A stretch of DNA of 43,746 nucleotides from sequence record PQ850621.1; one strand, given 5' to 3'. The position numbers and the translations under genes are program-made. The notes beneath the pieces were generated by a model. The model saw only the letters and a list, made by a program, of their open reading frames with translations. It ran no database searches and was not told the DNA's origin. Position 1 is the first letter of the stretch; every line of letters begins with the position of its first letter. The DNA is from Escherichia phage NicoleGrasset_Bas72. Of the stretch, positions 33,962 through 38,777 are shown piece after piece.

Positions 33962-33990
33962 CTTTTCTAAAATAATTAATATGGTACTAT
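33962..33990 (+). promoter_or_regulatory. weak promoter candidate for HTH regulator gene
   Basis: TACTAT -10 at 33985-33990 with AT-rich upstream region; -35 poor (CTTTTC). Confidence 0.3.
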
Positions 33991-34021
33991 TCACATATCA
34001 ACTGACTAAGGAGTAATTGAC

Positions 34022-37250: not shown

Positions 37251-37280
37251 TTGAAAGTTCTTGACACATGTTTGTATAAT
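37251..37280 (+). promoter_or_regulatory. sigma70-like promoter candidate TTGAAA-N18-TATAAT
   Basis: In divergent control region; would transcribe through palindrome 37307-37347 toward hairpin 37482-37510. Confidence 0.35.
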
Positions 37281-37306
37281 GGTTTTGGGACTTGTATATA
37301 TATTAC

Positions 37307-37347
37307 GGAGTTGACGAACCCTCCCCGAGGGATTCGTCAACCCCTCC
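37307..37347. promoter_or_regulatory. long imperfect palindrome (operator or RNA stem candidate)
   Basis: GTTGACGAACCCTC ... GAGGGATTCGTCAAC, arms about 14 bp with a short central spacer and one bulge. Confidence 0.4.
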
Positions 37348-37481
37348 CAGACAGCTGAGATGCTTGCCTTGTGGTTTAAGGATAAGTGTATCTAAATCTC
37401 ATTTAAAGAAGTAACCCGCTGAAATATCTACTGTTTCTTAATGTGCCGTAGATTCGCAACCGTAAAAATGTAACGATTATT

Positions 37482-37510
37482 GGGCAGGCTTAGGGCCTGC
37501 CCTTTAGTTA
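37482..37510 (+). terminator. terminator-like hairpin in divergent control region
   Basis: GGGCAGGC ttagg GCCTGCCC then TTTAGTT. Confidence 0.4.
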
Positions 37511-37574: not shown

Positions 37575-37603
37575 TTGCACACCCCAACATAATAGGATAC
37601 TAT
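37575..37603 (+). promoter_or_regulatory. promoter, TTGCAC-N17-TACTAT family
   Basis: TTGCAC, spacer accccaacataatagga, TACTAT; about 35 nt upstream of gene at 37638. Confidence 0.55.
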
Positions 37604-37637: not shown

Positions 37638-37829
37638 ATGTTTAAGAAGGGTCAGTTGGTTAAAACTAAACGCGGAGGGCAATATGTATTAGTGTTGCAG
37701 GACGAGAGCGAGTATGACGAGGATAATCTGGTTGACGTATGGGGTCTGGTAAGAAAGAAAACTGGGTTCGCCTCCCGCGATAATTTAGAACTCATCGGCA
37801 ACAATTTTAAATTCAAAGGGACGAAGTGA
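37638..37829 (+). CDS. small early protein
   Basis: GAGGAG SD 8 nt before ATG 37638; downstream of promoter 37575-37603. Confidence 0.5.
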   Translation: MFKKGQLVKTKRGGQYVLVLQDESEYDEDNLVDVWGLVRKKTGFASRDNLELIGNNFKFKGTK

Positions 37830-38065
37830 TGCAAATCATAATTACGGATAACACAGTTGCCTACGAAAAAGGTGGCGACAATACTCTGGAAAGAATAGGC
37901 GTAAATATAGGTGACGTTTTTGATGTGCTTGGTACTGTATCAGGCGGTTGGTGGATTAAGGTTGGACGCAACAAAGTGCCAGTAACTAAGGCCGAAGCGG
38001 AAATATACACAACGGCATCGAATCATGATGCTCGTGCCAACGACTCTGAGGGAGGTTGCCGTTAA
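37829..38065 (+). CDS. small early protein (ITD...GD...F.V family)
   Basis: ATG overlapping upstream stop; paralog pattern shared with 38065-38256. Confidence 0.5.
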   Translation: MQIIITDNTVAYEKGGDNTLERIGVNIGDVFDVLGTVSGGWWIKVGRNKVPVTKAEAEIYTTASNHDARANDSEGGCR

Positions 38066-38256
38066 TGAGAATTCGTATAACTGATGTTGATTATGTGGAC
38101 CCGCGCGATGGTGACGATTTGTCGCTTAGTTACTGGGGAGTTTCGGTAGGTGATGAGTTTGAGGTTTCCCTTGCTGGTTCCGATATGTTCATTATCGAAT
38201 GTGACGCCGGATATGTGGTTGTGCACTCCTGTGAGTGTGAGGTTCTGGAGGACTAA
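38065..38256 (+). CDS. small early protein (ITD...GD...F.V family)
   Basis: GGGAGG SD; paralogous to 37829-38065. Confidence 0.5.
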   Translation: MRIRITDVDYVDPRDGDDLSLSYWGVSVGDEFEVSLAGSDMFIIECDAGYVVVHSCECEVLED

Positions 38257-38259
38257 GTT

Positions 38260-38403
38260 ATGAGAGGAGCATTTGAACGGTGGGCCGTAGTCGAGGGTCT
38301 GCCGGTTAACAAGGGTTCGAAGAAAGAGTACCTGAACGTTAAGACGCGTCTCGCGTGGCGGGCGTGGAAAGCTGGTGTGCAAACGGTGGTGAATACGAGG
38401 TGA
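38260..38403 (+). CDS. small basic protein (47 aa), putative
   Basis: ATG 3 nt after upstream stop; not in ORF track. Confidence 0.35.
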   Translation: MRGAFERWAVVEGLPVNKGSKKEYLNVKTRLAWRAWKAGVQTVVNTR

Positions 38404-38406
38404 GAT

Positions 38407-38631
38407 ATGAGCGAGTGGATTAAGTGTAGCGAGCGGATGCCGGAGCCTTATGAATACGTTCTTGTAACTGATGGTTTTGTCGGTTGTGAGGTTATGCGTG
38501 TTAATTCAGATGGCTACTGGGGACCAGCGAAGAGTTTATACCACGGTGATATCTCCCACTGGATGCCGTTACCCGAGCCGCCAGAAGTGTTATGTTATAC
38601 TGTAACAATAGTTTGGGATTTTACTGAGTGA
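38407..38631 (+). CDS. DUF551-like small protein
   Basis: N-terminus MSEWIKCSERMPEPYEYVLV matches the recurrent W-x-x-C-x-E-R-x-P-E pattern of DUF551 phage proteins. Confidence 0.5.
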   Translation: MSEWIKCSERMPEPYEYVLVTDGFVGCEVMRVNSDGYWGPAKSLYHGDISHWMPLPEPPEVLCYTVTIVWDFTE

Positions 38632-38748
38632 CCTACGCTGCTACACAGCAGCGTATCATTTTTCTCATTTTTGTTCTATTTCACCAAACGCAACAATCGA
38701 AGCGACTATTGCAGGAGACGCAACAATACAAACACCAATAAAATTTAC

Positions 38749-38777
38749 TTGCACACTAATATAGAATAGGCTACTAT
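38749..38777 (+). promoter_or_regulatory. promoter, TTGCAC-N17-TACTAT family
   Basis: TTGCAC, spacer actaatatagaataggc, TACTAT; upstream of 38809. Confidence 0.5.

Follow-up and report, generated by a model that had tools for sequence, protein, structure and literature searches.

The genome of Escherichia phage NicoleGrasset_Bas72 (sequence record PQ850621.1) carries two adjacent small genes on its + strand, here called A and B. The whole stretch of 43,746 nucleotides (nt) that was analysed is referred to below as the window. An earlier note had described A and B as tandem paralogous early genes that arose by local duplication of a small domain. The open reading frames (ORFs) are exactly as given there: A runs from the ATG at 37829 to the TAA at 38065, and B from the ATG at 38065 to the TAA at 38256. 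The window is a Kagunavirus (Guernseyvirinae) genome. The 1.3 kb around A and B match 204 phage records, among which Escherichia phage vB-Eco-KMB35 is the nearest (98.5% identity), and the ORF map of the window fits a whole Kagunavirus genome of ~44 kb. A and B lie in a tight array of five genes, U-A-B-g47-DUF551, in which U and A overlap by TGATG, A and B overlap by TAATG, and the remaining gaps are 3 nt. Both are genuine coding genes, with ratios of nonsynonymous to synonymous substitution (dN/dS) of 0.08-0.33 for the core of A and 0.08-0.22 for B, indicating purifying selection.

37829..38065, + strand: ORF A, 78 amino acids (aa), a predicted SH3-fold core (residues 1-60) and an 18-residue tail predicted to be disordered (AlphaFold2, Foldseek, profile matches, dN/dS)
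38065..38256, + strand: ORF B, 63 aa, a predicted SH3-fold protein, strongly acidic (AlphaFold2, Foldseek, charge, dN/dS)

Homology and predicted fold of A and B

The sequence motif on which the earlier note based the relationship is present in both proteins, as I3-x-I5-T6-D7, G16-D17 and G24-V-x-x-G28-D29-x-F31-x-V33 in A and as I3-x-I5-T6-D7, G16-D17 and G25-V-x-x-G29-D30-x-F32-x-V34 in B. BLASTP aligns A and B end to end with 21/60 identities (35%) and E = 3e-6. The Smith-Waterman score is 58, compared with a shuffle mean of 22.8 (standard deviation 4.1), and none of 5000 shuffles in either direction reaches it. The similarity is thus well above chance. For profile comparison 63 orthologous proteins were gathered for A and 44 for B, most of them on contigs of 40-46 kb or on shorter fragments. 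The two orthologue sets are well separated. An hhalign comparison of their profiles gives a probability of 96.3% and E = 1.8e-9 over 56 columns, and nine columns are invariant in both families (M1, I3, I5, D7, L20, G28, D29, F31 and E56). The same PHROG, phrog_5684, is matched by A (E 2.5e-6, residues 1-50) and by B (E 7.9e-4, residues 1-44). The shuffle test, the profile-profile match and the common phrog_5684 establish that the paralogy is real. It is also old, since no DNA similarity between A and B remains; the best local match is 19 nt. A six-frame search of the window finds no further copy, so A and B are its only two. Gene U was considered as a third paralogue because of an SH3_2 hint (E 0.04), but its Smith-Waterman scores lie within those of shuffles and its hhalign probabilities against A and B are 0.1-0.7%.

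AlphaFold2 was run on a joint alignment. The model of A has a predicted local distance difference test (pLDDT) value of 80.6 overall, with >90 for core residues 1-60 and 52-58 for the tail; the model of B reaches 91.2. Both models give the same five-stranded barrel, with strands at residues 2-5, 30-37, 40-45, 48-53 and 57-61. The order of elements is identical in A and B: strand 1, a long loop with a short helix, strands 2, 3 and 4, a 3-10 turn and strand 5. The barrel, RT loop, n-Src loop, distal hairpin and 3-10 turn expected of an SH3 fold are thus all found in the predicted structures. Pairwise alignment, profile-profile comparison and structure prediction thus all support the notion of a paralogous small domain. 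In Foldseek searches of the Protein Data Bank (PDB), all top-50 matches are SH3 domains, for A and for B, with template modelling (TM) scores of 0.40-0.65 (B ~0.6), E-values of 0.007-0.2 and probabilities of 0.75-1.0, mostly >=0.9.

Sequence comparison with known SH3 domains points the same way at a weaker level. The profile of the A family gives 41 weak matches among PDB sequences (best E 0.003). Forty of them are to canonical SH3 domains, with the segment GDvxxVxxxxxGWW in register. The gathering threshold of the Pfam SH3 families is not reached: A has a sole match to SH3_2 at 13.3 bits (cut-off 21.8), and B has no match. Over 55 family members, the most frequent sub-threshold Pfam matches are to SH3_1 (8 members), FeoA (7), SH3_9 (6) and SH3_2 (5), and the best E-values to SH3_1, SH3_2 and SH3_9 are 0.016-0.029. 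Like the canonical domains of SH3_1, SH3_2 and SH3_9, including those of alpha-spectrin, CD2AP and p47phox, A and B are predicted to have the five-stranded topology, an RT-type loop, n-Src and distal hairpins and the 3-10 turn. Two further features are common to A and these domains, the in-register signature hGDxhxVhxxxxxGWW and a Pro that follows strand 4. In the A family the ligand face is partly kept, by G40-W41-W42, P51 and an invariant Y12. In place of the ALYDY tyrosines of canonical domains, A and B have I-T-D-x, which is I-T-D-N in the A family. Furthermore, canonical SH3 domains are parts of signalling proteins, whereas A and B are free-standing phage proteins of ~60 aa.

A and B belong to a family that is confined to phages and consists of free-standing proteins of ~60 residues with a predicted SH3 fold. 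An exhaustive hidden Markov model search of 1.84 billion representative proteins gives only 27 hits, of which those accepted as genuine are phage-encoded and 36-93 aa long, mostly ~60. Two large proteins among the hits, P0145 and P0147, are rejected as homologues. They are repeat proteins (an RCC1-like repeat with ACGDVFTVAV and a repeated beta-sandwich unit) in which nothing but the short GD motif is matched, many times over. The other large hits with multiple matched stretches were judged spurious solely because these stretches are short and repeated. Among 185,579 species genomes one match only is found, on a 6-kb contig of a metagenome-assembled genome labelled Bacillota, which we suspect to be a mis-binned phage fragment. 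A Foldseek search of BFVD retrieves uncharacterised small proteins from Klebsiella, Enterobacter, Shigella, Hafnia and Pantoea phages with TM up to 0.84. These BFVD proteins and the members of phrog_5684, phrog_10916 and phrog_30395 resemble A and B, with identities of 17-27% for the proteins from outside Kagunavirus. In a differently organised phage type, represented by Escherichia phage vB_Ec-G8 (L010, 1797-2683) and L030 (2111-2529), an SH3 gene resembling A is present but lacks the tail seen in Kagunavirus. In each a very diverged possible second copy lies nearby (hhalign P = 0.01 and 3e-4, respectively), hinting that the family may recur as nearby copies outside Kagunavirus.

B occurs in ~60% of the relatives, as several alleles. 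Their variation is concentrated in the RT loop and the n-Src region, and the loops evolve faster than the core (omega 0.47 vs 0.10). The alleles also vary in the length of the RT loop, which in some of them is shortened or contains 21-nt tandem repeats. One short-loop allele (MRIRITDRRLIDFGISVGD...; L024 3045-3257, L027 3045-3233, protein P0148) contains two or three tandem seven-residue units RITDRRL(I/V). The 21-nt repeats at its start suggest replication slippage in the region of strand 1 and the RT loop.

The exchangeable slot and the assortment of A and B

A comparison of eleven annotated phages and 17 IMG/VR contigs shows that the position between U and B is occupied by A in some genomes and by unrelated small ORFs in others. 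Some ten different small ORFs, unrelated to one another, replace A there in relatives, and in others the position is nearly empty. It is bounded by two conserved junctions.

37638..37829, + strand: gene U, 63 aa, MFKKGQLV...LIGNNFKFKGTK, opening the operon; its stop codon TGA overlaps the start codon of A; phrog_12538 match with E 2e-29
37791..37831, + strand: left junction, 41 nt, comprising the 3' end of U and the start codon of the cassette gene; conserved
38012..38062, + strand: right junction element, 51 nt (ACGGCATCGAATCATGATGCTCGTGCCAACGACTCTGAGGGAGGTTGCCGT), comprising the last 17 codons of A, a hairpin and the Shine-Dalgarno sequence of B

The position of A is an exchangeable cassette slot between these two junctions. 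A 22-mer core of the left junction, allowing <=3 mismatches, is present in 42 of 44 distinct Kagunavirus neighbourhoods. It lies 35 to 363 nt from the right junction, and at least 10 length classes are observed. The right junction contains the hairpin (38014-38019 paired with 38027-38032) and the Shine-Dalgarno sequence of B, GAGGGAGG, at 38048-38055. It is conserved as the 3' end of at least eight unrelated upstream ORFs, with 36 invariant columns among 23 distinct sequences, and nearly all cassette ORFs share the C-terminal tail TASNHDARADDSEGGCR that it encodes. An exact 21-mer of the right junction is found in 31 IMG/VR contigs of 5.9-45 kb, mostly ~41-45 kb. The element is single-copy in the window, and one copy is present in each of L001-L063. 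In L016 (2791-3060) the slot is reduced to 35 nt and is essentially empty, so that U runs directly into the common tail. Two fusion proteins are also seen at this position: P0048 joins in frame the N-terminal part of U and the C-terminal two thirds of A, and P0063 joins a U-type protein and the end of A. For the alternative cassette proteins nothing informative is found in Pfam or PHROGs, and the links of most of them to phrog_30617 are due solely to the common tail.

In 40 of the 44 neighbourhoods the right junction is read in the same frame, giving TASNHDARADDSEGGCR. Three phages use a different frame, and their upstream ORF stops inside the element. The synonymous rate (dS) is ~0 in the tail of A and 0.5-0.7 in its core. 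The near absence of synonymous change in the tail, together with reading in another frame with an internal stop, argues that the constraint acts at least partly on the nucleotides. The six pairs of the hairpin are preserved in 98.6% of cells, and compensatory changes are seen at two pairs in one sequence. Folded as a single sequence, the junction is unexceptional (z = -0.52). The conserved junction pair around an exchangeable slot, with its frame preference, is the most interesting by-product of this analysis.

This arrangement resembles the PeSL cassettes of T4-type phages, in which short conserved stem-loop motifs flank small non-essential ORFs of unknown function and mediate gene insertion, deletion and replacement among close relatives (PMC2839356, PMC4122927). 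The likeness concerns the junction element, not the A and B proteins: in both cases variable small ORFs are flanked by a conserved motif that contains a stem-loop. There are several differences. PeSL elements are present in many copies per genome and the Kagunavirus junctions in one. The latter lie within coding sequence. PeSL elements carry a strong early promoter and a terminator, whereas the right junction carries a ribosome-binding site, with no + strand promoter or terminator match overlapping it. Exchange at the Kagunavirus junctions, unlike that at PeSL elements, would need recombination between co-infecting genomes.

The occurrence of A and B was counted in 40 informative distinct Kagunavirus neighbourhoods.

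A and B adjacent: 4/40 neighbourhoods
A and B separated by other genes: 2/40 neighbourhoods
A only: 3/40 neighbourhoods
B only: 19/40 neighbourhoods
Neither A nor B: 12/40 neighbourhoods

A is thus present in 9/40 and B in 25/40, and the two occur together in 6, compared with 5.6 expected under independence. Phages KMB35 and ST20 and one IMG/VR contig carry the adjacent pair. In fFiEco02 and ORH_001 the two are separated by other genes. Phage fBC-Eco01 has A without B, and Bas71, ULINTec2, Bas74, Sciku and RP180 have B without A; the B protein of Bas71 is identical to that of the window. As joint occurrence equals the random expectation, the adjacency of A and B is one of several cassette combinations, and this independent assortment means that adjacency is evidence neither for duplication in situ nor for an obligate functional pair. 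A and B do have the adjacency, common strand and significant protein similarity of tandem duplicates. The paralogy in the proposed local duplication therefore stands. Duplication in place is not supported, because identity is 35%, no residual DNA similarity or co-inheritance of the pair is found, and the orthologue sets are separate. An ancient duplication followed by independent shuffling and two separate acquisitions fit the data equally well.

Possible function of the A and B proteins

The explanation that we consider probable, with some reserve, is that A and B are anciently diverged paralogues of a phage-only SH3-fold family that serve as independent, dispensable accessory protein-binding cassettes in one coupled operon. 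Both are translated from this tightly coupled operon, and each protein alone would be a small soluble cytoplasmic module. The loop face of the predicted barrel would bind a host or phage partner, and binding would modulate or block this partner during infection. A retains part of the classical ligand-face signature (GD...GWW...P). B would be a highly acidic variant suited to a basic partner surface. That each is dispensable is supported by the behaviour of the cassettes in relatives, namely the empty slot of L016, A without B and B without A. The analysis demonstrates the homology, the predicted fold, the coding status, the operon layout, the cassette behaviour and the independent assortment. 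What we infer is that the proteins bind other proteins, reside in the cytoplasm and serve as accessory factors or in contacts with the host.

Several points weigh against this explanation. No homologue is characterised and all related PHROGs are labelled 'unknown function'. For A and B nothing reaches threshold in Pfam, NCBIfam or PADLOC, and no hint of a catalytic domain is seen in these databases or in PHROGs. The structures behind the SH3 assignment are predictions, for which the TM scores are moderate (0.5-0.65) and the Foldseek E-values only 0.007-0.2. The B family has neither the WW nor the P residues of the canonical ligand face. Positive selection on the B loops is not shown, as their omega is <1. 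Independent action of A and B rests on co-occurrence statistics alone, from the 40 neighbourhoods. If the explanation is true, kagunaviruses encode a small collection of free-standing binders with an SH3 fold in a slot whose content changes from one close relative to the next. These phages are small, tractable and now in BASEL, and would lend themselves to identifying the partners that very small phage proteins have in E. coli. The junctions offer a route to study accessory-gene swaps that keep translational coupling intact. The paralogy of A and B by itself is a minor improvement of annotation: both can be named "SH3-like domain protein", with the last 17 codons of A treated as a common junction element outside the domain.

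It is rather unlikely, though the best of the other proposals, that B (perhaps also A) is a DNA-mimic decoy with SH3 topology, the acidic surface of which would fill the DNA-binding site of a host or phage protein such as a repressor, nucleoid protein or nuclease. Of the 63 residues of B, 16 are Asp or Glu; its net charge is -13.4 and its isoelectric point (pI) 4.05. It is predicted to have an SH3 fold, and the accessory-gene slot adjoins a gene for a helix-turn-helix (HTH) regulator. A precedent is the CarS antirepressor of Myxococcus xanthus, a documented DNA mimic with SH3 topology (PMC2926617). Like B, CarS is small, acidic and free-standing, and it acts purely via binding another protein, which makes a CarS-like decoy role for B an attractive sub-hypothesis by analogy. 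However, charge by itself is weak evidence, A is only mildly acidic (net charge -3.4), and no sequence relation of A or B to CarS or other known DNA mimics is detectable; CarS also belongs to another organism and regulatory context. Furthermore, the BASEL kagunaviruses, including the B carriers Bas71 and Bas74, are reported to be highly sensitive to restriction-modification (PMC11990801). An Ocr-like anti-restriction role for B is therefore disfavoured.

A broader proposal, which we regard as doubtful, combines such mimicry with the junctions. The head of the kagunavirus operon would be a dedicated cassette-exchange site, at which the two single-copy junctions permit in-frame swaps of unrelated small genes between co-infecting phages. 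A and B would be counter-defence or host-takeover decoys. B would use its SH3 topology to imitate the surface of a nucleic acid, and variation of the RT and n-Src loops would follow that of the host targets.

The implicit model of the earlier note, that A and B are an obligate pair such as a heterodimer kept adjacent after tandem duplication in situ, is improbable. The TAATG overlap implies translational coupling and near-equal synthesis, and the same adjacent pair recurs in KMB35, ST20 and one IMG/VR contig. The possible second diverged copies in L030 and vB_Ec-G8 would also fit, but weakly in view of their hhalign P values. Against the model stand the six joint occurrences where 5.6 are expected, the 19 neighbourhoods with B and no A and the three with A and no B. 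The genes that intervene in fFiEco02 and ORH_001 and the complete loss of DNA similarity between A and B also argue against it.

A and B might alternatively mimic FeoA and bind the host ferrous-iron transporter FeoB. An SH3 assignment of this kind is already on record, as the annotators of phage fFiEco02 noted for FE2_055, an orthologue of A, 'SH3 superfamily, similar to FeoA of Clostridium thermocellum, HHpred 96%' in GenBank. The FeoA matches in 7/55 family members have a best E of 0.013, and in the hhalign alignment E. coli FeoA is in register from the GD-box strand onwards. FeoA and the C-terminal SH3-like domains of DtxR proteins are small bacterial SH3-like barrels in which, as in A and B, a short helix precedes the GD-box strand, and their similarity to A and B is weak and sub-threshold. 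The comparison is nevertheless non-significant, with hhalign probabilities against E. coli K-12 FeoA of 6.2% (combined family) and 1.8% (A family), and membership in FeoA (PF04023) is rejected on this ground and on the sub-threshold Pfam matches. No FeoA structure is found in the Foldseek top 50 of either model, where one DtxR-family protein appears at rank 45 for A, and no FeoA appears in profile searches of PDB sequences. The signal for SH3 domains in general is no weaker. A and B are phage-encoded, and no feoB or other transporter gene lies nearby in this lytic-phage operon. We consider a FeoA-like role very unlikely.

It is still less probable that A and B are dimeric DNA-binding regulators or antitoxins of the AbrB/MazE type, with swapped hairpins forming a cradle-loop barrel in place of an SH3 barrel. 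The motif L..GVsVGDxxEV does resemble the GD-box hairpin of cradle-loop barrels. The best PDB sequence matches of the combined profile are designed double-psi barrels with 'LGVSVGDYVEV' (E 0.007-0.04), and one of the 55 members has a very weak MazE_antitoxin match (E 0.22). But the double-psi matches span ~20 residues, and we regard the likeness as a common supersecondary motif. No family or fold match supports membership: the AlphaFold2 models are confident monomeric five-stranded SH3-like barrels, and Foldseek gives SH3 domains only. The net charge of B is incompatible with DNA binding by B.

A merely chance or compositional similarity between unrelated ORFs, for which one could cite the shortness of the proteins, the frequency of GD-box motifs in small barrels and the identity of only 35%, is effectively refuted by the shuffle test and the profile-profile result, and the end-to-end alignment and identical predicted secondary structure of A and B speak against it as well.

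Operon setting and neighbouring genes

The U-A-B-g47-DUF551 operon is located between the replication module and the lysis module. The first 24 kb of the window are filled by large + strand ORFs, presumably the structural genes. A leftward block terminates in a helicase-primase gene and a small HTH gene, and the rightward run of very small genes leads to the holin and lysin genes. Besides U, A and B, the operon comprises the following features.

37575..37603, + strand: promoter-like motif read from the sequence, TTGCAC, 17-nt spacer, TACTAT, 35 nt upstream of U
38260..38403, + strand: g47, a conserved basic gene of 47 aa (pI 11) directly after B; phrog_15836 match with E 9e-34
38407..38631, + strand: DUF551 gene (Pfam PF04448, E 1.5e-15), the last gene of the operon
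38634..38655, + strand: terminator-like hairpin with a T-run, closing the operon; phage Sciku has a terminator annotated at the equivalent place

The motif at 37575..37603 is a candidate promoter of the operon. A second copy, with a similar leader, is found at 38749-38777 before the next gene cluster. The motif and leader (..AAACGAGA.AG..GGAG..ATG) thus precede two successive clusters of small genes, and a weaker copy of the 3' part is seen at 33974-33993. In phage fBC-Eco01 the sites equivalent to these motifs are annotated as 'phage promoters', predicted by PHIRE.

The early expression ascribed to A and B is predicted from position. It is plausible, because the genes lie in a rightward operon that adjoins the leftward HTH and replication genes. 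In a time-course transcriptome of the Kagunavirus K1B4, the neighbouring HTH gene is the only one of four early genes that is named; the gene calls in that study are too sparse for mapping A and B (PMC12645636).

An alignment of 13 variants of gene U shows invariant ends (MFKKGQLV... and ...LIGNNFKFKGAK) and a centre of ~40 residues that is almost wholly different among relatives. The same pattern of conserved ends and a variable middle is found in B. At the other end of the operon, the DUF551 protein of the window has 74 aa. It carries 13 extra residues (LCYTVTIVWDFTE) beyond the ...PLPEPPEV end of the proteins of KMB35, fBC-Eco01, Bas71 and others (57-66 aa), and may have been lengthened by loss of the usual stop codon.

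The divergent intergenic region at 37251-37502 (+ strand) contains three elements in succession. A near-consensus sigma-70-like site, TTGAAA, 18 nt, TATAAT (11/12 matches), is followed by a long perfect inverted repeat, GTTGACGAA...TTCGTCAAC, at ~37309-37341 and by a G+C-rich terminator-like hairpin at 37482-37502. This order of elements could specify a transcript of ~200 nt or a regulated leader. Rfam gives no match across the whole window, including the right junction and this region. In relatives, small minus-strand ORFs are annotated in the region equivalent to 37251-37502.

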